Below, in pieces: positions 6,087 to 42,626 of a stretch of DNA of 64,000 nucleotides (positions within the stretch are counted from its first letter, which is position 1; every line of letters starts with the position of its first letter). Where the stretch lies: IMG/VR virus record IMGVR_UViG_3300042516_004811, positions 87,108 to 151,107 of that record; one strand, given 5' to 3'. Source of the DNA: a virus. The translations under genes and the position numbers were made by a program. The notes below the pieces were generated by a model, which did no database searches, was not told the origin of the DNA, and saw nothing but the letters and a program-made list of their open reading frames with translations.

Positions 6087-6162
6087 GCGTCGGTGGCCAA
6101 ATGGATAAGGCAACAGACTTCTAATCTGTCGATTGCAGGTTCGAGTCCTGCCCGACGCGCCA
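6087..6162 (+). tRNA. tRNA-Arg(UCU)
   Basis: Acceptor GCGTCGG/CCGACGC, anticodon arm ACAGA-CTTCTAA-TCTGT, GGTTCGAGTCC, encoded CCA. Confidence 0.95.
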
Positions 6163-6197
6163 TTTTGACAGCGTGGGGTGCGTAGCCCAGCAGCAGG

Positions 6198-6278
6198 GGG
6201 CTAGTGGTGGAATGGCATACACGGAGGACTTAAAATCCTCTCCCGAAAGGGATGCGGGTTCAAATCCCGCCTAGCCCA
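6198..6278 (+). tRNA. tRNA-Leu(UAA)
   Basis: Acceptor GGGCTAG/CTAGCCC, GAGGA-CTTAAAA-TCCTC, long variable arm, GGTTCAAATCC. CCA is not fully encoded. Confidence 0.93.
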
Positions 6279-6297
6279 CAAGGTAGTATTCAATCAT

Positions 6298-6373
6298 TGG
6301 CGAGTAGCTCAGTTGGCAGAGCGGAGGACTGTTAATCCTTTGGTCGCAGGTTCGAGCCCTGCCTCGCCAGCCA
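6298..6373 (+). tRNA. tRNA-Asn(GUU)
   Basis: Acceptor TGGCGAG/CTCGCCA, GAGGA-CTGTTAA-TCCTT, GGTTCGAGCCC, encoded CCA. Confidence 0.95.
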
Positions 6374-23237: not shown

Positions 23238-26200
23238 TTAATCGTTGGCGAAATTGTCTGGCTTAACCTTTCTTCTCTCTCGTTTTTTTCCAGAGAGTGT
23301 CTCGCCATCCTCTTCAATTCTTCTGCGTGCTGTCTCTAGCTGCTCTCTACTGAAGATGTCTTCAATGGTGTGATTCGTTCCAAATGCTTCATTGAATCTG
23401 TTGACAATCTGTTGTAGCTCGTTGCTGCTGAATCTTGGTTCATCGCCCTTTCTTGGGCTGAATACGGAACCTTTTCTCTTTGCTGACTCCGACAGATATA
23501 GGGCCATATCTGTGCTGTTTGTTATGTAGTTGCGCGTTTTTGTGCTGTTTTGCGGCGAATTCGGAAAACTCTTGTCAATAAATTCATTAAGTGCCTCATA
23601 AACAGCATGTTTCGCGTTGCTGAGTTCTGAATCCAGTTTTGAACCGGAGTCTCCATCTCGCCAAACAGAACTGGCGTCTGGAATGAGACCAGCCTTTATC
23701 ATCTGGTTGATATACGCGATTGGAACTCCGTTTTTCTTCCAGTCACTCTGTGCGCCAAGACCAACATCATCCATGCCGAACGACTGCTGCAGTCTTTCGC
23801 GCATTCTCTGTTGCCATCCCTTTTCTGGGATACCCAGATACTTGAGAAGAGCGTCAAGTTCAAAGTCCTTGCGCGCAGTCTTGTCAGCCCTTAGCTCCTC
23901 CGCAGAAACATCTGGCTCCTGTATGTCAGGAAGTTCTGCCTCATCAATTGACTCCTCCATGAGCATTTCCTCAACTGGTGAGTCACCCCTGGTGGCGCTA
24001 TCTTTATCGAATCGGCCGCTAGCACGGAATTGTGAAACCCTGCTCACCTCACCAAGTGAATCGTATTCCTCTGGGGAGATTGGGTTATTTTCTTCCTCGT
24101 CAAACCAGTGTGGGAATGCGTCCTTGCCAAATGTTTCGATTATGAATCGGTCACGCATGTTGGCCCTGCCAAGATTTTCCGCAAATCGTTCCATTACGTT
24201 CATTTCAGCAAAGTCTTCGTCTGCTCTTGTGACAGGGGCAAAAAGCCTCCATCCAGCAAACTCTGGCTGTTTTCCAAGTTCGGCAACAAGCATGCGTACC
24301 GCATCGTGGTTAATTCCGGCATCGGGGTCCGAAAGTTTTGCCGCATTTGGCTTGTCAAGGTTCAGCAGGGATGCCAGCTCATCATTGCTTAGTGGACGCG
24401 ATTGGGTCCAGGTAATGTCTTTTCTTCCGGTTCCTGGGTCGGTCTGGACAGAGTATTCCGTTGGAATTCTTATCGTATCCTTCAGTTTTTCCGTGGAGAG
24501 CATCCATGTTGAGGCTGTTGGGTTCTGGTTGGGGTTGTTTGACGAAACGCTACCAACAGTAATTTGTGGTCTGTCTGCCATTCTCTGTGAAACGTTGTTC
24601 ATCGCTTCGCGAATCTGTCTCTGTCTTGCATCAGTTCCAGAATCATCACTATTCACGTCAAGGGCTATGCCGGTTCTCTTGAATCCGTCCCATACGCGCA
24701 TTGAATAATCGAGTTCGCGTCTAGCTTTAGAGTTTGTTTCTGGGTTTCCAGACAACCTCAGACCTGCAATTCCCTGTGTGCTTGGTCTTGCATTCCTTGG
24801 TGCGCGCTGAGCTCCGCCCTGGCGCAGTCTGCGACCAAATCTTCCTTCTAGCTCCACATCGGTACGACCGCTAGAGAAGAACTCTTCTGGCGACGGACCA
24901 TCATTCCGCTTGCCAGGGCGACGATTTGCCCTCAGCCTGTCACGGTCAGCAAATCTTTGCCTGTCTTCGTCGGACCATGGGGTTTGACGGGAACGATTTA
25001 GTCTGCGGTTTCTGCGTCCGCGACCTGAGCGACCAGAGGAAAGGAAGTCAACGAACTGGTCCATGTCTGGACTATTGGACGCGTCCTCGTCACCGATGTC
25101 TTCGATTCCGTCGATGCTGGCGTCTTCGTCTTCTTTTTCCTCTTCTTTTTCTTTGATTATGTCGTCAATTGACTTGCCATCATCGCCACCACCAACTTCG
25201 TAGTCGCCAGGCTCATCGTCGTCGTCTTCGATTGTTGGTGTTGGTGCATTTATTTCCCCAGAGTATGGGTCAAACAGGCCTTCCGGCTTATTGAGATAGT
25301 CGGGCATTCTGCCGTCCTCAATAGCCTTGTCGATTGCCTCCCTTTGTCTTGCCGACACAGTGTCAGAGAGGTAAAGGTCGTATATTGCCTTGCCCGGGTC
25401 GATTGCTCTCTTTGCTCTAGTTAGAGCAACATAAACAATGTTGAGTTCCTCTCTTCTGGAGCGACTCTCAACTGGTTTTCCAGTTTCTGGGTCTATGTCG
25501 AGGTCTGGAGGATTACGGAAGTCAGAAGCAACGCGGACCCTATCCCACTCTCTACCCTTGGATAGCTGCGCGGTTGTTATTTCAACGTCAGCATTTGGCG
25601 TTTTTGCTGAAGTCCTCATGCGGCTTACTATGTCGTTGAGAATAAAAGCAGTTTCTTCGTCGGTATCGCCCTTGATAACAACAGTGTCTCCAAACTCTTT
25701 TCCAGAACCTTCCTTGTTTCGGAGACCGTTCTTCTTGAATTGGACTTTTCCACCGTAGTAATCACTATCCTCTAGGATTCTCATCATGTCTCTGAAGTAG
25801 ACACCCTGTGGCGCTTTTACGACTTTTCCAGTCTTGGTATCGGTGTATTCACCACCGCTATCAATGCCCCAGTCAAATAACTCAATGGCCCCCGTCCATT
25901 CGCCCTCACGCTTTCCGTTCACATCCGCGAGCTGGAGGTGCCACTGAACCTTGCTCTTTCCTTTACCGGTTGTGTCTGGAATTACCTCAAATCTTCTGGC
26001 ACGACTTGCTGTTGACGTTGAGGTGAAACCCGTTCCGCGCTGTGCAGATATGGTCTTTAGGTCATCAACATTTACGTCCTTGAGCTTGGAAAGATTGAGC
26101 ATCTTTCTCTCTGGAACAATGACTGGCGCCTTGATTCCTGGCGTTACGCCATTAGCGAACATGTTTCGGTATTCCCATGCCCTGCGTGGTGGGATTCCGA

Positions 26201-29200
26201 GGTTTTTATTGCCGCGAGTAACAAGCTTGTACATTGACTTGAGCTGTGCATACTGCTCTTGTTGAGCCCTGCGCTTTATTTCGCCAGCATCCCAAACATC
26301 ACCAATCCATGAAGACGCTTTCGGGCGCAACCCCTTCTTTGTCAGCTCTATCTGCTTATCTACCGGTGTATCCATTACGAACGACAAGTGCTCAAAGAAT
26401 GCTTTCATTTCTCTGTGTTTTGTCGCTGGAATCATCACAACGGGAGGGAGTTCCTGTCCGTTTCTGGTGAATCTCGGCTGGAAGTTTTGGATGAACTGCA
26501 ATGCTTCATAAATAATTGTTGCATTATCGCGCGTAAGGATTGCGTCAGCGTCCTTCATGTCGGCAACAAACTCACCAGCTGCTTCTTTTGAAAGAACATC
26601 CTTTAGTGACGCAAGCTCCCTGCTTCTTGCTGCCTCGTCCATATCGGCAAGAGCAACGTAACTATCTTCTACTTTTCGGAGCTCCTTGGAGAGAGCCTTG
26701 TTGATTTCAATACCTGAAACAATTTCATCATCAGACAAAGATGCAAGCTTTGTCTTGTACTTCTTGTCTGCTGCTTTGAGCTTTTCTCTTCTCTGGTCAA
26801 CAGTCATGCTTGTCATATCGAAATCATCACGAATGCCTTTTTGGGCAATTCTGATTCTGTCGCTCTTGTACTTTGACTCAATCTTTACTAAGGCTTCGCG
26901 GGCTCTTTCTGGGGAAAGGCCATCCATGTCGAAGTCGTTGTTGATTACATCAACAGCCAAACCGGCAACGTGGTGGAATCTGTCTTCTATTCCCAATTCA
27001 GAATCGTCAATATTGCCCTGTGACTGAATCAGGTTTGCCAACCAAGCAACAGTTGGTCCATAACGGAACGACTCATTCAATGGGAGGTCATAGTCGCCGT
27101 TTAGTGAGGAAAGAATGTCTTTAGCACCACGGAACGCATAAACTGCTTGCCTCTTGTCGCCAACAAGTAGAATAGAGAGATTGTCTCTGTTCTTATTTAA
27201 CACCTGCTCCATTACTGGGTTCATATCTTGAGCTTCGTCAATCATGAACATTGACAGCGGGTTATCCTTAGTTGCGTATCTCCGCGCGACCGTGGCCTGG
27301 AAGTTCTTGCCTTTCTGGCCTGTCTTTACAGAGATAACCACACGTCCGTCAGGGAGAATGTCCCCAACTTTTGTTTCCTTTGGAACCTGAACGTTTGCCT
27401 CTAGGTCTTTTCCTGTGGCATGACCAATCAAGCCAGGGTCGCTTCTCAGGTCTGGGTCGGTCATCGCCCAGAGTTTGTCTGTCTGCCCTTGGTCTGGAAG
27501 GACGATGCTGTCCGGGTCGGTAACCATGTTCCAACCATCATTGGCGTCTTTCAACCACTGGTCTGGAATTGAAGGCCATTCAGTGTCAACAATTGAATCA
27601 GATGCTCTGCCCTTGTTGATGTCTGCTCTCTTGAAGTGCTGTGGGCCGATTTTCTCGTCAGCACTGTTTGCGAATGCCTTGAGTGCCTTGTTAAGAATGT
27701 CTGCATAGTCTCTAACTGTTAGATTTACTCCCGCTATTGGGGTTGGCATTCCGGCACCCTTGCCAGCAGAGAACTCTTCTCTATCGGTGAGCTTGAGTGC
27801 TTTAATCCAGCCGTTTGAGTCAGATAGCTTCAAATAACCAAGGTCTCTCCAGCCCGGGTCGTACCCAACCGTCTCACCCTCTGTTCCATCAACTTTTGTG
27901 AACTTGATTGTTTGAAGTTTTCCGTCTTTGTCTCTTCTGGCAAATGTCCCTCTATCCTGGGTGGAAATTTTTACCTTGTCGCGGAACTTCTTGCCATACT
28001 TTTCGTCACCCTGACCGAGCAACAATGACCACCAAGACAGCCTGTTTAGTGTTGATACACCAGTGTTGTCGCTGAATTCAGCAGCAGCCTCTTCTTCATT
28101 CTTCTTGTTGAAAACAACGTAGTACGCCGTTGGTGACTTAAATTTGTCTCTAAGTTCAGAAAGTTTTGTATCCCTGTCCTCTTCCGACATTGAGGAAAGG
28201 TCAAACTTGTCATCATCGGTGCTGTACTTCTCGGAGATGAAATCCAGTTTTTCCTTTAGGGCTTCCGGTCGATTAATGAATCGCGTGATATCAAACTCGC
28301 GTTCAGCTGCGGCCATCAATGCCTTGAGGGTTGTTGTTTTCCCTGAGCCGGCACCAGCAGAAACAGTCATGATGCCTTTTTGCTCGCCAAACATTAAAGC
28401 AAGACCAGTATCGATGATGTCTTTCTGCTGCTCTGTTGGCTCATAAGAGAATCCATATAGGCTTCCGAAATGTGCCGTTCCTGGTGAGCGTTTTACGGCA
28501 CGAGCTTCGTCACCGCTCCTATGCTGGACTGAACCACGCGATGCACCACTGGACAAGCGTCCAGATACGTCCTTAGCTAACCCGTCGCGACCCTCACGAC
28601 GGATATAGCCGCCGCCGATAATGTCTTCATCAACGGTATTGAGGTTGCTCATCATTGCGCCGCTAGACAGGGCCTCGGTTGAAGCCTCGCCGGAGGCCTT
28701 TGAGCCCTTCCTCGTTCTCTTTGGCTTTTCTGCTGGAGCTGGAGGAACTATGTCCTCAATGTCTTCGTCGCCAAATGTTCCACGCACGCCACCAATTGTC
28801 GGAATCTTTGGTGAATCCTCAAATCCAACAATCATTGGGACTTCAGCGGTTGCCTCGTCCTTGCCCTTGCGCTCGCCATCCGGAATACCAGCACGCTTGC
28901 GCATGGTTGCCGAACGATTCATCAGGAAGTCAACAGCCTGCTGAGCTTGAGTAATTGCGTCTTTCAATGCCTCTGGACGGCTACGTAGAGCCTGGAGCCA
29001 TGAAGCCAAGTACGGTGCGTGGTCTTTTCTCACTGGAGCTTCAACACCCATTGCGCCAAGAGCAAATGCCGAACCAATCTCGGCAATAAGTTCTTCGAAT
29101 GCATAATCAGCATCACCAAACTGTTTGCCAAGTTTTCTGTTCATTCTTGATGGGTGTGATGTCCAGTGAACGGTCTCGTGGAATAGCGTTGAGTAGAAGT

Positions 29201-32141
29201 TCAATGGGTCCTTGAACTGCTCAAACTGCGGCATTGTGATTTCGTCAGCCATTGGGCTATAGAAAGCCCTATTGCCCTTGACTTCCTTCCATGCTGGAGC
29301 AATTTCTTTGATTACATCTTCCAGGTCCTGGAGTCTCTGCTCTGGTGACAACTGAAGAACATCATCTAATTCATACATTTCTGGTGGGAGACCCTCAACG
29401 TCTGCGACGTTCCAGACTGTGGTTGTGTGGAAGCCGCGATAGCTGCCAACTACATTTCCATCCCTATCGAGTATGGCTGTCTCTGTTTTGTTCGGAGCAA
29501 GAATCTGGACGCCACGCTTTTCCATGGCCTCCTTGCTTATTTTGCCGCCAATCTTTTTCCACTGACCAGCTCCGGCCCAGCGATTCGTCTTGTAGCCCCT
29601 AGCGCTGCTGATTAGTGTCAGCATCAGCTGGTTTGTTCCCTGATAAACACGCTTCTGGCCAGTTGCGTTTCTCGCCATGATTTCCAGTTGGCGCCACGGG
29701 ATTTCCCATCTCGCATTGCCTGGATTCTTGGCAATTTCTTCAAGAGCAGTAATAATCTGCTCTGTCATCTTGGCATAAACATCATCCAGAATTTGCTTTT
29801 GCTCTTCTGGGGTTACATTGTCGGAGTCAAGAACCTTTCCAGAGGAAAGTCTTTCACCTTCTTTGAACTTGTTGAGTGGGCCCTGATACTTAACCTTGTC
29901 AAAATCGCTACGCTTATTGTCTGGGGTGCTGAGGAAGCGCTGGTAACCGCTTGAGAGTTTGGTTACGTCTCCAGCATCCTGCTGACGCATTTCGCGCTCT
30001 GACATCTTCTCGACACGATTCATGTATTTGTCGAGTTCGTTGATTGCCTTACGCAGTCTCTTTATTTGGTCTGGGTCACTTGCCCCATCAAGAACACCCT
30101 GTAGCTGTTCTCTCTGCTCTTCAGCCATGGCCATTTTGTCAAACGACGCAACATCTGGGTCATCCACACGTGGAACCTCATAGAGCTTTCCACTCGAAAG
30201 TCCTGTTGCTGGCTTTGATACTGGCGCGCCAGGTGCGCCTGGCTTCTTGAGCTGCTCGGGGGATGGCTTTGGGTTGCGTATTGAGCCAGGACCGTCTGGG
30301 GTTGGGTCGGCCTGCGCAAGGGGTGTGCCTCGCATGAATAGGCCCTCACCAACAATTCCATCAAGGTCAACGTCTCTTGCGGTGAATGGGTCAAAGTCCT
30401 GAGCACCAGAGCTGGTGAAGAATCTTCCACGAGAGCGACCGCCACCAAGATTTGGTCGGTCAACCATTCGGCTACCAATTGCCCTGCCTAGGCGGTAGCC
30501 AATAGCCTTTTCTTCTATGCCACCATCATTTAAGGATTTTTTTTTTAAATTATCAAGCGCGGTATCAATTGCGTCGATGAGCTCAAAGCTGGCCCCCGAA
30601 GTGATAACAATTCCATCCGTATCCACATAAGCGTCGGCATAGTGGTAATCAAAAATTGGGTCGAGAGCCTGCTTTACACGGAACGCATACTGCGGCATTA
30701 CCGGAATGCAGTATGCGCCATTCATGTCATCGCCCTCGCGACCGAAGTCAGCGAGGCTCTTGTATTTACGATTCTTCTTGCGCTTACGCCCAATAATTCC
30801 TCTTAGAGCAGCTACGGCTAGTTCGCCTGGATACTTAACCTCAAGGTCCTCAAGGTAATCCTCTTCATTTGCTTCTGTCTGGTATTCGTAAGACTTCTTG
30901 ATGACAACATCACCCTTGACTACACCCTTAGGAATGACTGCAAATCTGCACTTACCTTCAGATTCAATGTCGAGGTCGATTATCTGGCAAGAGTTCCCAC
31001 CCTTGAAAAATACGCAGTTGGCGCACTTGACGCCGATGTTCTTGACATCATTTTCTGCGGCCGATGTGTACCCAGCCCAAACGCCATCAGCGTCTTCATT
31101 AAACTTGCCATAGCGCTTAACTATCTTAAGAAGAGAATCGCGGAGGTCAGCCTCTTCTGAGTCGATATTGTTCGGGTCGAACTGCGGACGAGGCTTTTTA
31201 CCTGAGTCCTCGTAATCAACTGGCGGAAGCGGAACTATTTGCATCCCAGCCTCGCCTGGCTTGATTGCAACAGGGATTCCCGGCATCTGCGAAGGACGCA
31301 TAATTCTTTCTGGGACTGACGGCATTCCAGGTGAAGCCATTGGCATCATTGGCATTGGCTTTGGAGCCATAGGAACACGCTGTGGTGGGCCAAACATAAA
31401 TCCGGCAGGTCCACGGCTGTAGTGGCACTTGTACTTGCCCACTTTTCCTTCGTCTTCCCTACGCGAGAAGGTAATCATGTCATCAGCAACGTCATCAATC
31501 ATGACCTTTGAACCGATAACCATCGATAGCTGCTTTTGGATTTCGTCTGTCTCGTCCTCTTCCATCATCATCATCGGTGATGGGGTCATCATTCCGCCCT
31601 TTTCATCTGACTTAACTGAGATTGTTCCAGTTAGCTGGTTTGCACCATGCAGAACGGGGGAGACTTCGTATAGTTCAAGCTCAAAGATGACATTTGCCTG
31701 AGATTTCTGGTCATACTGAGCGCGTAGCGTCTTGTAACCAATTGACCACTCTTGCTCCTCGCCAAAAAAGGCAACATTTGCAAAGGCTTCCCGGCCCTTC
31801 TCGGACTGAAGATTGAACTGGACGCGAGCAAAAAGTCCACCAATTCCAGCCATTTTCATCTTCATTGGCAAGCGATTATCGGTGGGAGGAACTTCGTAAA
31901 TCTCTAGAACTTTACCAATCGGGTCATTCCAGTTATGGCCCCATACAACACGTGGTTTTCTACGCATCAAGCTCTTTGTAAAAGCGCCAGTGGCAACGAT
32001 GTCACCAACTGAGTCCTTGTTTCCGATGCCAGCAACGAAACACTCGACAATACCCTGCGCCTCATTGAGGTTAACTGAGTCGGCCTTGCCCTCGGCAGTG
32101 CCTAGCGCAGTTGTCTTGTATTCAAAAACCTCACCTGGCAT
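23238..32141 (-). CDS. 2967-aa polyprotein: HK97-type prohead protease + 4-Cys domain + ArdC (ssDNA-binding + metallopeptidase) + UvrD-like SF1 helicase
   Basis: Protease: DSVGDIV..GAF, WGHNWNDPIG, WSIGY, LYEVSPVLHGAN. ArdC: WEIPWR, YQGTNQLML, HETVHWT, YAFEELIAE. Helicase: AGAGSGKT, IDEAQD, VGDKRQAVYAFRGA, SFRYG, SKGREW, YVALTRAK. Confidence 0.92.
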   Translation of the reverse strand: MPGEVFEYKTTALGTAEGKADSVNLNEAQGIVECFVAGIGNKDSVGDIVATGAFTKSLMRRKPRVVWGHNWNDPIGKVLEIYEVPPTDNRLPMKMKMAGIGGLFARVQFNLQSEKGREAFANVAFFGEEQEWSIGYKTLRAQYDQKSQANVIFELELYEVSPVLHGANQLTGTISVKSDEKGGMMTPSPMMMMEEDETDEIQKQLSMVIGSKVMIDDVADDMITFSRREDEGKVGKYKCHYSRGPAGFMFGPPQRVPMAPKPMPMMPMASPGMPSVPERIMRPSQMPGIPVAIKPGEAGMQIVPLPPVDYEDSGKKPRPQFDPNNIDSEEADLRDSLLKIVKRYGKFNEDADGVWAGYTSAAENDVKNIGVKCANCVFFKGGNSCQIIDLDIESEGKCRFAVIPKGVVKGDVVIKKSYEYQTEANEEDYLEDLEVKYPGELAVAALRGIIGRKRKKNRKYKSLADFGREGDDMNGAYCIPVMPQYAFRVKQALDPIFDYHYADAYVDTDGIVITSGASFELIDAIDTALDNLKKKSLNDGGIEEKAIGYRLGRAIGSRMVDRPNLGGGRSRGRFFTSSGAQDFDPFTARDVDLDGIVGEGLFMRGTPLAQADPTPDGPGSIRNPKPSPEQLKKPGAPGAPVSKPATGLSSGKLYEVPRVDDPDVASFDKMAMAEEQREQLQGVLDGASDPDQIKRLRKAINELDKYMNRVEKMSEREMRQQDAGDVTKLSSGYQRFLSTPDNKRSDFDKVKYQGPLNKFKEGERLSSGKVLDSDNVTPEEQKQILDDVYAKMTEQIITALEEIAKNPGNARWEIPWRQLEIMARNATGQKRVYQGTNQLMLTLISSARGYKTNRWAGAGQWKKIGGKISKEAMEKRGVQILAPNKTETAILDRDGNVVGSYRGFHTTTVWNVADVEGLPPEMYELDDVLQLSPEQRLQDLEDVIKEIAPAWKEVKGNRAFYSPMADEITMPQFEQFKDPLNFYSTLFHETVHWTSHPSRMNRKLGKQFGDADYAFEELIAEIGSAFALGAMGVEAPVRKDHAPYLASWLQALRSRPEALKDAITQAQQAVDFLMNRSATMRKRAGIPDGERKGKDEATAEVPMIVGFEDSPKIPTIGGVRGTFGDEDIEDIVPPAPAEKPKRTRKGSKASGEASTEALSSGAMMSNLNTVDEDIIGGGYIRREGRDGLAKDVSGRLSSGASRGSVQHRSGDEARAVKRSPGTAHFGSLYGFSYEPTEQQKDIIDTGLALMFGEQKGIMTVSAGAGSGKTTTLKALMAAAEREFDITRFINRPEALKEKLDFISEKYSTDDDKFDLSSMSEEDRDTKLSELRDKFKSPTAYYVVFNKKNEEEAAAEFSDNTGVSTLNRLSWWSLLLGQGDEKYGKKFRDKVKISTQDRGTFARRDKDGKLQTIKFTKVDGTEGETVGYDPGWRDLGYLKLSDSNGWIKALKLTDREEFSAGKGAGMPTPIAGVNLTVRDYADILNKALKAFANSADEKIGPQHFKRADINKGRASDSIVDTEWPSIPDQWLKDANDGWNMVTDPDSIVLPDQGQTDKLWAMTDPDLRSDPGLIGHATGKDLEANVQVPKETKVGDILPDGRVVISVKTGQKGKNFQATVARRYATKDNPLSMFMIDEAQDMNPVMEQVLNKNRDNLSILLVGDKRQAVYAFRGAKDILSSLNGDYDLPLNESFRYGPTVAWLANLIQSQGNIDDSELGIEDRFHHVAGLAVDVINNDFDMDGLSPERAREALVKIESKYKSDRIRIAQKGIRDDFDMTSMTVDQRREKLKAADKKYKTKLASLSDDEIVSGIEINKALSKELRKVEDSYVALADMDEAARSRELASLKDVLSKEAAGEFVADMKDADAILTRDNATIIYEALQFIQNFQPRFTRNGQELPPVVMIPATKHREMKAFFEHLSFVMDTPVDKQIELTKKGLRPKASSWIGDVWDAGEIKRRAQQEQYAQLKSMYKLVTRGNKNLGIPPRRAWEYRNMFANGVTPGIKAPVIVPERKMLNLSKLKDVNVDDLKTISAQRGTGFTSTSTASRARRFEVIPDTTGKGKSKVQWHLQLADVNGKREGEWTGAIELFDWGIDSGGEYTDTKTGKVVKAPQGVYFRDMMRILEDSDYYGGKVQFKKNGLRNKEGSGKEFGDTVVIKGDTDEETAFILNDIVSRMRTSAKTPNADVEITTAQLSKGREWDRVRVASDFRNPPDLDIDPETGKPVESRSRREELNIVYVALTRAKRAIDPGKAIYDLYLSDTVSARQREAIDKAIEDGRMPDYLNKPEGLFDPYSGEINAPTPTIEDDDDEPGDYEVGGGDDGKSIDDIIKEKEEEKEDEDASIDGIEDIGDEDASNSPDMDQFVDFLSSGRSGRGRRNRRLNRSRQTPWSDEDRQRFADRDRLRANRRPGKRNDGPSPEEFFSSGRTDVELEGRFGRRLRQGGAQRAPRNARPSTQGIAGLRLSGNPETNSKARRELDYSMRVWDGFKRTGIALDVNSDDSGTDARQRQIREAMNNVSQRMADRPQITVGSVSSNNPNQNPTASTWMLSTEKLKDTIRIPTEYSVQTDPGTGRKDITWTQSRPLSNDELASLLNLDKPNAAKLSDPDAGINHDAVRMLVAELGKQPEFAGWRLFAPVTRADEDFAEMNVMERFAENLGRANMRDRFIIETFGKDAFPHWFDEEENNPISPEEYDSLGEVSRVSQFRASGRFDKDSATRGDSPVEEMLMEESIDEAELPDIQEPDVSAEELRADKTARKDFELDALLKYLGIPEKGWQQRMRERLQQSFGMDDVGLGAQSDWKKNGVPIAYINQMIKAGLIPDASSVWRDGDSGSKLDSELSNAKHAVYEALNEFIDKSFPNSPQNSTKTRNYITNSTDMALYLSESAKRKGSVFSPRKGDEPRFSSNELQQIVNRFNEAFGTNHTIEDIFSREQLETARRRIEEDGETLSGKKRERRKVKPDNFAND
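30526..30549 (-). other. candidate frameshift/slippage site T TTA AAA AAA AAA with nearby out-of-frame stops
   Basis: T10 on the + strand at 30537-30546. The -1 frame stops at TGA 30528-30526 and the +1 frame at TAA 30532-30530. Confidence 0.5.
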
Positions 32142-38508: not shown

Positions 38509-38928
38509 GTGGCGCTACAGAGAAAAAAACCGCTACAGCAGAAAACGCCACTAAAAGCAAAAAAACAACTACAGTCAAAAACTGGCCTAAAACAGAATAA
38601 ACCCATAAATCGTTCTTCTAAAAAAATTGCTCACAGAAGCAAGAAGATGGAAGATAAGTACGTTGACAGGCGGAAGTTTGTCAAAAAAATACTTTCGGAA
38701 AGACCATTTTGTCAGGCCTGTCCAGTTTTTGCCGAACATGATGCTAGGGCAGTTTTTTGGGTAAACCAGAGCACCGATGTTCATGAATTAGTCAGACGTT
38801 CACAGGGTGGCTCGATACTTGACGAAGAAAATGTACTCGCAGTTTGCAGGCCGTGCCACACACGCATAGGTGAATATCCTGAGTTGTCTTTTAATTTAGG
38901 ATTAGCAAAACACTCCTGGGAAAAGTAG
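38509..38928 (+). CDS. HNH endonuclease
   Basis: CQAC...DVHEL.RRSQGG...ENVLAVCRPCH. Confidence 0.88.
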   Translation: MALQRKKPLQQKTPLKAKKQLQSKTGLKQNKPINRSSKKIAHRSKKMEDKYVDRRKFVKKILSERPFCQACPVFAEHDARAVFWVNQSTDVHELVRRSQGGSILDEENVLAVCRPCHTRIGEYPELSFNLGLAKHSWEK

Positions 38929-38934
38929 TACACT
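38929..38934 (+). promoter_or_regulatory. -10 element TACACT of the candidate small RNA
   Basis: TAnnnT placed 6 nt before A38941, the same spacing as at leaderless genes here. No clear -35. Confidence 0.6.
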
Positions 38935-38940
38935 GTAATC

Positions 38941-39002
38941 ACCTTAGGACCGTTATAGGCGCAGAAGTAGGGAGATAAAGCCTCCCTACTTCTGCGTTTT
39001 TT
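38941..39002 (+). ncRNA. candidate small RNA antisense to 23S rRNA helix 69
   Basis: ACCTTAGGACCGTTATAG is the reverse complement of CUAUAACGGUCCUAAGGU (E. coli 23S 1914-1931). It is followed by a terminator hairpin. Confidence 0.7.
38960..39002 (+). terminator. intrinsic terminator
   Basis: 15-bp stem CGCAGAAGTAGGGAG/CTCCCTACTTCTGCG followed by T6. Confidence 0.92.
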
Positions 39003-39017
39003 GTTATAGTCGAAACT

Positions 39018-39554
39018 ATGCGGCTCGTTGGTCTTGATTTATCACTTACATCAACGGGTGTTTCAATTAATGGCAGTACGCATGTCATCGCGGTCAAAGA
39101 GAGAGGGCCAGAACGCCTCTCTATCGTGAGCAGACAAATAGCTGATATTTGTTTATCTGAGAGAATTGATTGCGCCCTCATAGAGGGGTATTCATTTTCC
39201 TCAAGGAATTCCCAAGCACACAGTATTGGTGAGCTTGGTGGATGTGTGAGAATGAGACTCTGGGAGAACCAAATACCCTTTGTAGACATCCCACCAACAT
39301 GCAGGGCTAAGTTTGCTACCGGAAAAGGAAACGCAAGCAAGGGTGAGGTAATTTCAGCGATATCAGCAAAAACTGGAAAAGTATTCTCCGGTGCTGGTGG
39401 AAACGATGAGTGCGACGCTTGGGTGCTTGAGCAGATGGGAATCGCCTATTTAGGTAACTCGGAGTGGGATTGGACAAGGGAACAATTATTAGCCTTGGCC
39501 AAAGTAGACTGGACCGCAATTGACAACATTGAAAACGATAAGACAAATTTGTGA
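39018..39554 (+). CDS. ruvC: RuvC-like Holliday junction resolvase
   Basis: GLDLSLTSTG, ALIEGYSF, ELGG, KFATGKGNASK, DECDA. Confidence 0.88.
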   Translation: MRLVGLDLSLTSTGVSINGSTHVIAVKERGPERLSIVSRQIADICLSERIDCALIEGYSFSSRNSQAHSIGELGGCVRMRLWENQIPFVDIPPTCRAKFATGKGNASKGEVISAISAKTGKVFSGAGGNDECDAWVLEQMGIAYLGNSEWDWTREQLLALAKVDWTAIDNIENDKTNL

Positions 39555-39564
39555 GGATTAATAA

Positions 39565-39900
39565 ATGAGAACTACACCTATTAGCCAGATAGAAATTGAG
39601 CAGGAATTGATTCGACTGGTGAATAGATTAGAGAACGAGACGGAGCAGTTTGAAACAGTCGCCATGGATATGGCTAAAAAGGAAGCTCTTTATAAGTCTA
39701 ATTGGGCCAAAGAGTACATATCAGCAAAGGGCTCAATCAAAGAACGAGAAGCATGGGCAGACTACAAGCTTGACCAGCAGCTTTTCGAATACAAGTGCGC
39801 TGAGGCCCTAGTCAAAGCAAAGCGCGAAGTTCTTCTTTCAATCAGGTCATCAATTGATGCTATTCGCACACTTAATGCAAACGTTAGAACACAGGTCTGA
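39565..39900 (+). CDS. hypothetical coiled-coil protein
   Basis: GAGGA RBS, 111 aa. Confidence 0.75.
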   Translation: MRTTPISQIEIEQELIRLVNRLENETEQFETVAMDMAKKEALYKSNWAKEYISAKGSIKEREAWADYKLDQQLFEYKCAEALVKAKREVLLSIRSSIDAIRTLNANVRTQV

Positions 39901-39901
39901 C

Positions 39902-40780
39902 ATGTCGAATGGAATACATGAGTCACTCAGCGAGCTTGCTGTAGACATAAATACTCTTTCACCACTAGACGGAAACCCGCGTCGTGGAAATGTTGAGGCA
40001 ATCATGGCCTCGTACCGTGAATTCGGACAAATTAAACCAATAGTTATTCGACCAAACTCGGATGGTACTGCAACCGTTATCGCTGGCAACCACCAGCTAG
40101 AGGCAGCAAAGAGACTTGGTTGGGACAAGATTGCTGCTGTCGCATACGACGTCGACGACAGAAAGGCAATTGCCTTCGCTCTTGCTGACAATAGGACAAT
40201 GGAGCTCGGATACACAGAGCCGGAACTTCTTGGGGAAGCGATACTGGAGTTGTCTGACTTTTACCCAGAACTCATGGAGGGTCTCGGTTGGGATGAGTTT
40301 GCTGCTGCGGAAATAGAGCAGAAGATAATCCGTCAGGATAATCAGATTGTTGAACCAGGCTCGGGATTCATGCCGCCAGTTATTGTTTCTAACGGAAGCA
40401 ATGGATTCGACAGGATAGACGATGATGATGAAGAAGAGTACGAAGATGCTCTATCGCCTCAAGGTTTAACAACACCAACACAGCCATCGCCGTCAATTGA
40501 CAGAAACGCAGTGTCAATCACTACGACGGAAGATGGACAACAGAGGATTAGCGCACGACCCGGTGTTGACCAGGATGATGCTGTGGTTAGGGGTTCAACA
40601 ACTGTTACACCAGGCTCTGCGCCTCAAGCGATAGTTCAGTACACGCTTGTTTTTGATAACCACGAGCAGCAGAGACGCTGGTACGACTTCATTAAGTGGC
40701 TCAGAAGTGACCCAGCAGTGGTTGGCGTAACAACCGCTGAAAGACTAATGGACTTCATCGGTCAACACACGGAAATATAA
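39902..40780 (+). CDS. ParB/Srx N-terminal domain protein
   Basis: NPRRGNV..I..S...FGQIKPIV...VIAGNHQLEAAKRLGW...LADNR. Confidence 0.88.
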   Translation: MSNGIHESLSELAVDINTLSPLDGNPRRGNVEAIMASYREFGQIKPIVIRPNSDGTATVIAGNHQLEAAKRLGWDKIAAVAYDVDDRKAIAFALADNRTMELGYTEPELLGEAILELSDFYPELMEGLGWDEFAAAEIEQKIIRQDNQIVEPGSGFMPPVIVSNGSNGFDRIDDDDEEEYEDALSPQGLTTPTQPSPSIDRNAVSITTTEDGQQRISARPGVDQDDAVVRGSTTVTPGSAPQAIVQYTLVFDNHEQQRRWYDFIKWLRSDPAVVGVTTAERLMDFIGQHTEI

Positions 40781-40784
40781 CAGC

Positions 40785-40940
40785 ATGGATACTCCAGAAG
40801 AAAGAATCGAGAAACTAGAGAAGAACCTCGCTGAGGTTGAAGCTGACCGAGACTACTGGCGCTCAATGGCGGTTAGGGTTCTTCAAGAAATCAATGATGC
40901 TAAAGCGGAGATATTGAAACTATCGACCGGTAAACACTAA
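40785..40940 (+). CDS. 51-aa hypothetical protein (below ORF-track cutoff)
   Basis: MDTPEERIEKLEKNLAEVEADRDYWRS...KH*. Fills the gap, and its TAA overlaps the next ATG. Confidence 0.65.
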   Translation: MDTPEERIEKLEKNLAEVEADRDYWRSMAVRVLQEINDAKAEILKLSTGKH

Positions 40941-42085
40941 TGACAAGACAGAGACTCTTCCTTGATATGTCCTGTGTTGATGCAGCTCGTCAACGCATTA
41001 GGCACGTATACGACACATTTGATACTGTCTGCGTTCAATTTTCCGGAGGAAAGGACTCCACAGCTGTCCTCCTTCTTGCCAAGGAAGTCCACGAAGAACG
41101 AGGTCTTGGGCCTGTAAAAGTTATTTTCCGTGATGAGGAAATGGTTAGCCCAACTGTTGCTGCCTATGTTGAGAAGGTAAGAAATTACGACTGGGTTGAT
41201 ATGGAGTGGTATTGCCTGCCATACCCAGCCGAGATATGGGTTCTTGGTTACCGTTTAACCACAATCCTGTGGAGCCAGGAAAGATTTGAGCAGGACAGAT
41301 GGGTCAGGCCCATGCCACCCTGGGCCATTAGCGGCAAGAATTTTGGTCTTTCGCACAGTGTCTCCCTTCCAGAGCAGACCGACTATTACACAATGCAGGG
41401 AAAAAGAGGAAACGTGGCGTTCCTTACCGGCGTTAGGGCCAGTGAGTCAATGGTTCGTTATCGCTCAATAGTTCAGAAGCTTCACGAGAACTACATCAAT
41501 ACCCCATACAAACTGAAACGCGGTATCCCCCTTAAGTTTGCCAAGGTAATTTATGACTGGAATACAAATGATGTGTTCAAGTTCATTATTGAGGAGCATG
41601 GGGCTGAATACTGTGAATACTATGACCTTGCTGTAACTACGGGAAGTAATACTCGCGTGGGGATTCCACTCCACGCAACAGCCATTAGGAGAATCGGTGA
41701 CGTCATTGCAACTGAGCCAGAATTCTACGACAGACTATTTGAGTGTTTTCCATACATTGACGCACAGCGTCGCTTGTGGCCTGAATTTGATTCAGAAAAA
41801 CTGATTGATAAATATGCCAAAGATGGTTTTGACGGAGCTTCACGCTTTATTGACGAATACCTGATTGGCGATAGAAGAAAAACAGAAGCCAGGGCATATG
41901 TAAATAAGTTTCGTAAGAAGCATTTAACAGACCCGCATGGCTATCCTGTTAGTTGGTTAATCAGAAACTTGATGCTCAATGAGATTGACGTCAATTCACC
42001 AACCCCTGTTGGTCCCAAGACGAAAGCCTATGCTGTCAGGGCAATAGAGATGGAAAGGGCAGATGTTTATGAAGATGAAAATTGA
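40940..42085 (+). CDS. IbrA-like PAPS-reductase-family (PP-loop) protein
   Basis: AARQRI..VY..FD...VQFSGGKDS, FRDEE, TGVRASES..R, IYDW..NDV. Confidence 0.88.
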   Translation: MTRQRLFLDMSCVDAARQRIRHVYDTFDTVCVQFSGGKDSTAVLLLAKEVHEERGLGPVKVIFRDEEMVSPTVAAYVEKVRNYDWVDMEWYCLPYPAEIWVLGYRLTTILWSQERFEQDRWVRPMPPWAISGKNFGLSHSVSLPEQTDYYTMQGKRGNVAFLTGVRASESMVRYRSIVQKLHENYINTPYKLKRGIPLKFAKVIYDWNTNDVFKFIIEEHGAEYCEYYDLAVTTGSNTRVGIPLHATAIRRIGDVIATEPEFYDRLFECFPYIDAQRRLWPEFDSEKLIDKYAKDGFDGASRFIDEYLIGDRRKTEARAYVNKFRKKHLTDPHGYPVSWLIRNLMLNEIDVNSPTPVGPKTKAYAVRAIEMERADVYEDEN

Positions 42086-42626
42086 TTATGTTGACCCATC
42101 GGTACTGAGTGTTCCGGAATGGAGAGCTACATACACCGTTAGACCTGAAATGCTTGTGATTTCCGCCTCGCTCTCTCAGTTTGGATTTATTGAACCGATT
42201 CACGTTCGCCTATCAACTGGTGAAATAATCAACGGCTCAGAGAGATACTTACTGGCAACCAGTATTCCGGCAATCCTGGCCCATACTGATGGAAAAATAC
42301 CAGTTGTATTTCATGATGTTGACAAAATCGACGCAATGATGCTGCATCTCCGCCTCAATAGGGGTCATTCTCATGTGATTGCGGCCAAAACTTCTGAAAT
42401 AATTCGTTCGGTTCGTCGTTCCGGCAAATACGGGGCAGCCGATTTTGAAGACATGCTCTGCATGAGGTCAGAAGAATTATCGCTAATGCTTGACGGAAGC
42501 CTATTCAAGGTTAGAAAAATCAAGGAGCACAACTATGCAAGAGCATGGGTTCCGATTGAGGCTCCGCCCGGCTATAAAGACCAGGAATCAATGGTTATAG
42601 AAAGACCACCAAATCCTGACAGATAA
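42063..42626 (+). CDS. IbrB-like ParB-domain protein
   Basis: SLSQFGFIEPI...IINGSERY...LRLNRG. Overlaps the IbrA-like gene. Start could be 42069 or 42075. Confidence 0.75.
   Translation: MFMKMKIDYVDPSVLSVPEWRATYTVRPEMLVISASLSQFGFIEPIHVRLSTGEIINGSERYLLATSIPAILAHTDGKIPVVFHDVDKIDAMMLHLRLNRGHSHVIAAKTSEIIRSVRRSGKYGAADFEDMLCMRSEELSLMLDGSLFKVRKIKEHNYARAWVPIEAPPGYKDQESMVIERPPNPDR

Follow-up and report, generated by a model that had tools for sequence, protein, structure and literature searches.

Phages carry a conserved, strand-specific small RNA gene whose unpaired head, as the comparisons below support, is complementary to helices 69 and 70 (H69/H70) of 23S rRNA. We consider it likely that small RNAs pairing with H69/H70, at the subunit-joining centre of the ribosome, have arisen repeatedly and in several lineages of aquatic phages, often accompanied by one directed at the 3′ tail of 16S rRNA; this would be a layer of host takeover or counter-defence previously unknown in bacteria and phages. 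The small RNA described here quite probably pairs with 23S in the cell. Our main reading of its action, to which we give a probability of about one half, is that it would pair with 23S in free or immature 50S subunits and take them out of use.

A compact gene between HNH and ruvC

The element lies in a 64,000-nucleotide stretch (the window; positions 87,108 to 151,107 of IMG/VR record IMGVR_UViG_3300042516_004811) of a complete 151,107-base phage genome with terminal repeats (Table 1). On re-reading the sequence, we recovered the layout given in the preliminary description: TACACT, a spacing of 6 nt, the 18-mer, a hairpin and T6. The single G placed there before the hairpin is present but is not a separate spacer, as G38959 is the first base of the stem, with a closing pair that is G-U in 17 of 20 homologues and A-U in 3. 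The stem strands (38960–38974 with 38982–38996) form 15–16 bp, and the 18-mer occurs once in the 64-kb window even with three mismatches allowed.

Table 1. The element and its neighbours, in window coordinates
Feature	Position	Strand	Remarks
Predicted −10 box TACACT	38929–38934	+	Directly 3′ of HNH stop codon; consensus evidence
Predicted small RNA, ~62 nt (seed, stem-loop, U tail)	38941–39002	+	Single copy in genome
Seed, 18-mer, exact complement of 23S rRNA 1914–1931	38941–38958	+	H69 loop, H69 3′ strand, H70 start
Stem-loop flush with seed	38959–38997	+	15 Watson-Crick pairs, closing G-U, 7-nt loop
T6 tail, intrinsic-terminator-like	38997–39002	+	Sequence
Extended −10 (TG-N-TATAGT), predicted leaderless ruvC promoter	39002–39010	+	7 nt upstream of ruvC ATG
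Small HNH endonuclease, upstream neighbour	38509–38928	+	phrog_15522, E 2.7e-10 (PHROGs)
RuvC-like Holliday junction resolvase, downstream neighbour	39018–39554	+	phrog_159, E 1.9e-35 (PHROGs)

We predict a start site near 38941 and, for the small RNA, a promoter of its own at fixed spacing and no ORF; the HNH–ruvC gap holds no plus-strand ORF of 50 aa, and the window no canonical −35 upstream of TACACT. The extended −10 before ruvC would restart transcription downstream of the RNA. In the predicted fold the first 16 nt of the seed are 75–100% unpaired, and C/D or H/ACA boxes (UGAUGA, CUGA, terminal ACA) are absent from the 62 nt. Several relatives (L082, L086, L088, L090 and L094) share a conserved TT(G/A)ACACTTTCAGTATTTA block ~22 nt upstream of the −10, too distant for a canonical −35 and possibly a phage or host activator site.

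An exact complement of 23S rRNA

As the preliminary description had proposed, the 18-mer is antisense to 23S: its reverse complement sits inside a true 23S gene (locus L017; Rfam LSU, minus strand). In E. coli 23S numbering the target is 1914–1931, which spans the loop and 3′ strand of H69 and the first part of H70. The 18-mer is the longest word common to the 151-kb genome and a 2,486-nt piece of 23S, the next being 14 nt, and by a naive recalculation the window would contain some 18-mer match to rRNA by chance with a probability of about 0.008, close to the ~0.01 estimated earlier.

The computed duplex with the exact target reaches about −31 to −32 kcal/mol, compared with −22 for the CCAUCC variant of the target and −20.8 for the best other duplex within the phage genome. 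After opening a 65-nt target the net gain is still ~22 kcal/mol, in folding energies that leave aside proteins, tertiary contacts and H69 modifications. In five genomes from the class of the probable host, the seed has no site other than 23S within three mismatches; at this stringency the mRNA target that is a feature of the sRNA family was not found, although short imperfect mRNA sites may exist. In viruses, the seed 18-mer returned 22 matches, 16 of them seed-plus-stem elements, whereas a control 18-mer from 23S returned five, comprising three rRNAs and two chance matches. We rejected the idea of an H69 mimic encoded on the opposite strand, as the H69 5′ strand is missing and the promoter and tail are on the antisense strand.

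Conservation, strand and distribution

Loci fetched by RuvC protein (80 viral loci) gave, with the window, 65 distinct upstream regions, which we scanned with element patterns derived from the seed scan and homologue contexts, the reverse strand serving as control. An anti-H69/H70 element stands upstream of ruvC in 30 of these regions and is absent from 35; all 30 lie on the ruvC strand and none is reversed. It occurs in 0/18 loci where HNH abuts ruvC and in 29/36 loci with a gap before ruvC, and a separate −10 (TAnnnT-N6-8-start) precedes ruvC in 32 of the 36 gap loci versus none of the 18 HNH-abutting loci. A quick tree of RuvC calls for no fewer than five gains or losses along its well-supported branches, and near-identical RuvC pairs differ in presence of the element. 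By covariance model there is one copy per genome in five of seven near-complete genomes, the remaining two having a loop variant and none, respectively; the element was not found in a 97%-complete relative. From this patchy presence, the single copy and the separate ruvC −10, we conclude that the element is an accessory cassette, one that probably brings its own signals for starting and ending transcription. None of these conclusions draws on the unpublished genomes G501 and G539.

Among RuvC relatives down to about 55% identity, the seed is nearly invariant while the stem turns over, although some homologues retain only 10–11 nt of complement or carry mismatches. Substitutions that keep pairing through G-U outnumber the others by six types to two, a weak bias to which we attach little weight. 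Seed scans of viral and metagenome contigs added many further members. Across 33 representatives below 85% identity, of which three are not true members, the stem begins 0–2 nt 3′ of the seed, and TAnnnT lies 6–7 nt upstream of the seed in 21, as anticipated for relatives, against a mean of 2.6 and a maximum of 8 in shuffles; T-rich tails such as the T6 of this genome occur in only 13. Almost all members have the seed flush with a 15–20 bp stem. In 20 aligned members, 12 of 14 counted stem pairs change on both sides and 98.9% of stem cells are paired, a level that 0 of 500 shuffles and no slid register approach, and the consensus fold leaves the seed unpaired. The covarying stem and the strand count of 30 versus 0 support the earlier proposal of a phage small RNA and point to a gene that is conserved and strand-specific.

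The preliminary description also suggested that the RNA could guide a nuclease, which is not supported for the neighbouring HNH: HNH lacks the RNA in 18 loci, and the RNA is also found away from HNH (L003, L006, L007, L009, L011 and L014). We rejected an IscB/HEARO-type guide RNA for HNH on the same two counts, the 18 loci with HNH alone and the six with RNA and no nearby HNH. Neither the window nor 23 other loci matched an Rfam family at gathering score; a FinP antisense RNA match (30.9 bits against a cut-off of 45) was stem-driven and without traJ, and was discarded. Bacterial copies were not found either, a GTDB scan yielding 13 matches, none an element, and a covariance-model search of 121 host-class genomes matching nothing but 23S on its reverse strand. 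Cultured phages, whose nearest terminases are about 40–44% identical, gave only rRNA contaminants and weak chance matches.

Other scaffolds and a partner RNA

The complement is carried on more than one scaffold. In a sister clade the complement reaches 1937, and the added part is presented in the loop of a 5′ hairpin whose 3′ strand carries the 23S match further. A second class, a longer RNA 3′ of genes in unrelated phages, holds an anti-1917–1930 stretch in one hairpin and, in a separate loop that lay outside the search pattern, an anti-1930–1936 stretch whose C-G-C and A are invariant in 20/20 aligned RNAs. These RNAs of ~95 nt comprise the anti-1917–1930 hairpin, a GGCGGCTGCTGCC hairpin, the anti-1930–1936 loop and, on the 3′ side, AAGTGAGC, which could plausibly take part in a pseudoknot; examples are L119:4629-4723, L103:3436-3529 and L146:5921-6013, with about 40 more, and none has an Rfam match.

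In many relatives a second RNA beside the element pairs with the 16S 3′ tail at a computed −23 to −28 kcal/mol; it was not found in this genome. It occupies the HNH–ruvC gap in L081:2840-2985, L084, L086-L088, L090, L093, L098, L061, L062, L048, L023-L026, L056, L029 and L067, with a head such as AGAAAGGCAGGTGGTC and, in every one folded, a bulge or mismatch inside the Shine-Dalgarno core.

Taken together, the fixed strand, the varied scaffolds, the 23S-only site, the 16S-tail partner RNA and the control 18-mer argue for RNA pairing with 23S.

Sense copies of the target region also occur. Phage tRNA arrays contain 23S 1914–1934 on the tRNA strand (L001:2618-2641, L005:10979-11040, L012, L020, L197 and L200), and in L005 and L012 the copy continues with a hairpin and a CACGAA-GGC-AATGA stretch resembling 23S at about 1965–1980, an arrangement that could be a mini-mimic of H69–H71. 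The copies in these arrays may be decoys. Outside rRNA operons, sense copies appear in a delta-proteobacterial MAG (L337:2396-2416), in a tRNA array directly 3′ of a Ro60/TROVE gene, and in Myxococcus (L336 and L338); similar pieces occur in metagenome loci L344, L371, L380 and L390.

The phage and its probable host

Two whiB genes in the phage genome indicate an Actinomycetota host. The named cellular relatives of the phage RmlB (75–78% identity) belong to Acidimicrobiales or unplaced Actinomycetota and sit in cellular-looking contigs, and from this one gene plus whiB we infer that the host is probably a member of the Acidimicrobiia. In the class to which one RmlB-relative genome belongs, 128 of 146 genomes with readable H69 have the exact target, 12 the CCGUCC variant and one CCAUCC; the GGUCC form, suggested earlier as an aid in typing the host, fits a host in the Acidimicrobiia. 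The variant given earlier for Mycobacterium and Streptomyces is real, as Arthrobacter and Streptomyces H69 read CCAUCC.

The expectation that the seed covaries with host H69 was disappointed: a fully compensated GGATGG family was not found, a scan with the actinomycete-variant 14-mer gave 85 chance-like contexts, and the 17-mer gave three matches, none an element. The GGATGG heads of L030, L038 and L494 do fit CCRUCC variants better. We do not count them as host tracking, because that part of the seed also reads GGACAT, GGACAG and GGACCC within the same clade and typing the host of that phage was unsuccessful.

Elsewhere, the phage has a full rmlABCD cluster closely related to Acidimicrobiales genes, and two whiB genes (G000:C1:66093-69547, outside the window, and window 6087-6373), and it encodes a class II ribonucleotide reductase and three tRNAs. 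At window 39854-42626 lies a trio of ParB-N, PAPS-reductase-like and second ParB-like genes, and at 23238-32141 a 2,967-aa ORF that, by eye, has a prohead-protease-like start followed by ArdC/MPTase-like and helicase-like stretches.

Proposed mechanism and alternatives

In our main reading, the phage would transcribe a 60–65-nt RNA from a host-type promoter, and the 3′ stem, whose structure is evident from covariation, would end and stabilise it. The unpaired head would nucleate on the H69 loop of host 23S rRNA and displace the H69 5′ strand, and the exact complementarity would allow a 17–18-bp duplex over 1914–1931 in the cell. H69 is part of intersubunit bridge B2a. Because it is buried in that bridge in 70S and mobile in free and late-immature 50S, these particles would be the likely targets. 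Without B2a, a bound particle would stall in maturation or be unable to associate with 30S. Ribosomes already at work as 70S would be spared at first, the supply of new and recycled 50S would drop, and trapped particles may be degraded. The gain could be a reallocation of the resources of a slow-growing host and a damped host response. Direction of effect and gain are the least certain of these steps, and the main difficulty is the cost to the phage's own translation. Helices 67–71 are unstable in 45S (late 50S) precursors (PMC3737534), and a synthetic anti-H69 PNA is described as inhibiting E. coli growth in a citation of earlier work (Kulik et al. 2017, cited in PMC7038079).

The main rival reverses the benefit. 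The RNA would cover or remodel H69/H70 of idle subunits against an infection-induced rRNA-cutting toxin or decay nuclease and be displaced at subunit joining, preserving ribosomes for the phage; we regard this as unlikely, if a serious candidate. Of the M. tuberculosis toxins, MazF-mt3 cleaves both at helix/loop 70 and in the 16S anti-Shine-Dalgarno, which are the regions covered by the RNA and its 16S-tail partner, and MazF-mt6 cleaves loop 70 of 50S subunits while leaving that of 70S ribosomes uncut (PMC5408214). The sense copies in tRNA arrays of other phages and at the Ro60 locus likewise have a decoy-like placement. However, the seed stops at 1931, about 8–10 nt before the UUCCU cut site, only a few homologues reach 1937–1941, a duplex with a net −22 kcal/mol would be hard to release, and no such toxin was identified in the host.

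It seems doubtful that the duplex instead marks 23S for decay or modification by attracting a double-strand RNase of the host or an enzyme, after which 23S would be cleaved or modified and would supply nucleotides for phage DNA synthesis. The flush junction of seed and 15–20 bp stem would give a long stacked helix, the phage has its class II ribonucleotide reductase, and one distant element (L168) lies 3′ of a putative RNR-like gene. Yet C/D and H/ACA boxes are missing from the RNA, none of the phage enzymes is consistently linked to it, and the loop-display variants would not form the same long helix.

We think it improbable that the RNA biases initiation, favouring 70S initiation on leaderless phage mRNAs by depleting free 50S and, jointly with the partner RNA, the anti-Shine-Dalgarno. 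Among 158 phage genes, 29 have leaderless-type starts where about 3.5 are expected, the predicted start of ruvC among them, but Shine-Dalgarno-type starts are also in excess (42 versus about 17), 18% leaderless genes is ordinary for actinobacteria, and this genome has no partner RNA. The suggestion that a leaderless bias is the purpose of the RNA is therefore not sustained by these counts.

More improbable still is a role at the DNA level or in cis: an I-CeuI-like homing-endonuclease site or decoy, a binding site for a protein, or control of ruvC as a leader. The best-conserved form is a near-perfect DNA match, and the 18-mer is the core of the I-CeuI site. Against a DNA role, the strand is fixed, the covariation is of RNA type with many G-U pairs, and in other classes the complement is split over separate loops, as would not be expected of a DNA site. 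As a leader, the seed cannot open the stem, ruvC has its own downstream −10, and the element is also found away from ruvC.

A chance match, or vector or adapter contamination (I-CeuI sites are used in vectors), is on these sequence comparisons already refuted by conservation: only 18 nt of the I-CeuI site are present, dozens of phages from numerous samples have natural variants at this locus, and the control 18-mer yields no such elements.

Relation to known systems

If this RNA does pair with 23S, RNA alone would suffice for phages to control or protect the ribosome, and they would do so at a target of antibiotics and of synthetic antisense agents. The varied natural scaffolds show ways in which an RNA can invade a structured rRNA helix. 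The target sequence is identical in enterobacterial 23S, which makes the proposal directly testable in E. coli.

Trans-acting base-pairing sRNAs of the RybB and OmrA/B type, with a 5′ seed and intrinsic terminator, resemble the phage RNA in being short stand-alone genes with a conserved unpaired 5′ seed and a 3′ stem-loop. They target mRNA, whereas the only complement found for the phage RNA is rRNA; its match is also perfect over 17–18 nt, its seed is flush with the stem and it is phage-borne. The phylum of the probable host is not known to have Hfq. Box C/D and H/ACA guide RNAs and snoRNA chaperones of archaea and eukaryotes act on pre-rRNA through antisense elements of 10–21 nt; the phage RNA has neither their boxes nor partner proteins and belongs to a bacterial virus. 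The synthetic anti-H69 PNA shares antisense invasion of helix 69, but it is man-made and not RNA; what it demonstrates is that the site is open to invasion, not how the phage RNA acts.

Ribosome-associated small RNAs (rancRNAs) are alike in that action on the ribosome itself is proposed for them, as we predict for the phage RNA. The 5′ end of S. aureus SprF1 binds the subunit interface and lowers initiation, but unlike the phage RNA it acts through a purine-rich tract and doubles as an antitoxin; the review describing it contains no occurrence of 'phage' or '23S' (PMC8938821). MazF-mt3 and MazF-mt6 likewise address helix/loop 70 of free 50S, mt3 also the 16S anti-Shine-Dalgarno, but they are host protein nucleases, with a cut site just 3′ of the seed's target (PMC5408214). 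A literature search with incomplete coverage of subscription papers, and a comparison with Rfam as the one set of motif tables, returned no description of such an RNA, in agreement with the earlier statement that no phage anti-H69 sRNA had been described. The base-pairing sRNAs of bacteria and phages that we know of act on mRNAs; a natural sRNA that pairs with a working helix of 23S, of which we found no description, would be a new kind if the pairing occurs in the cell.
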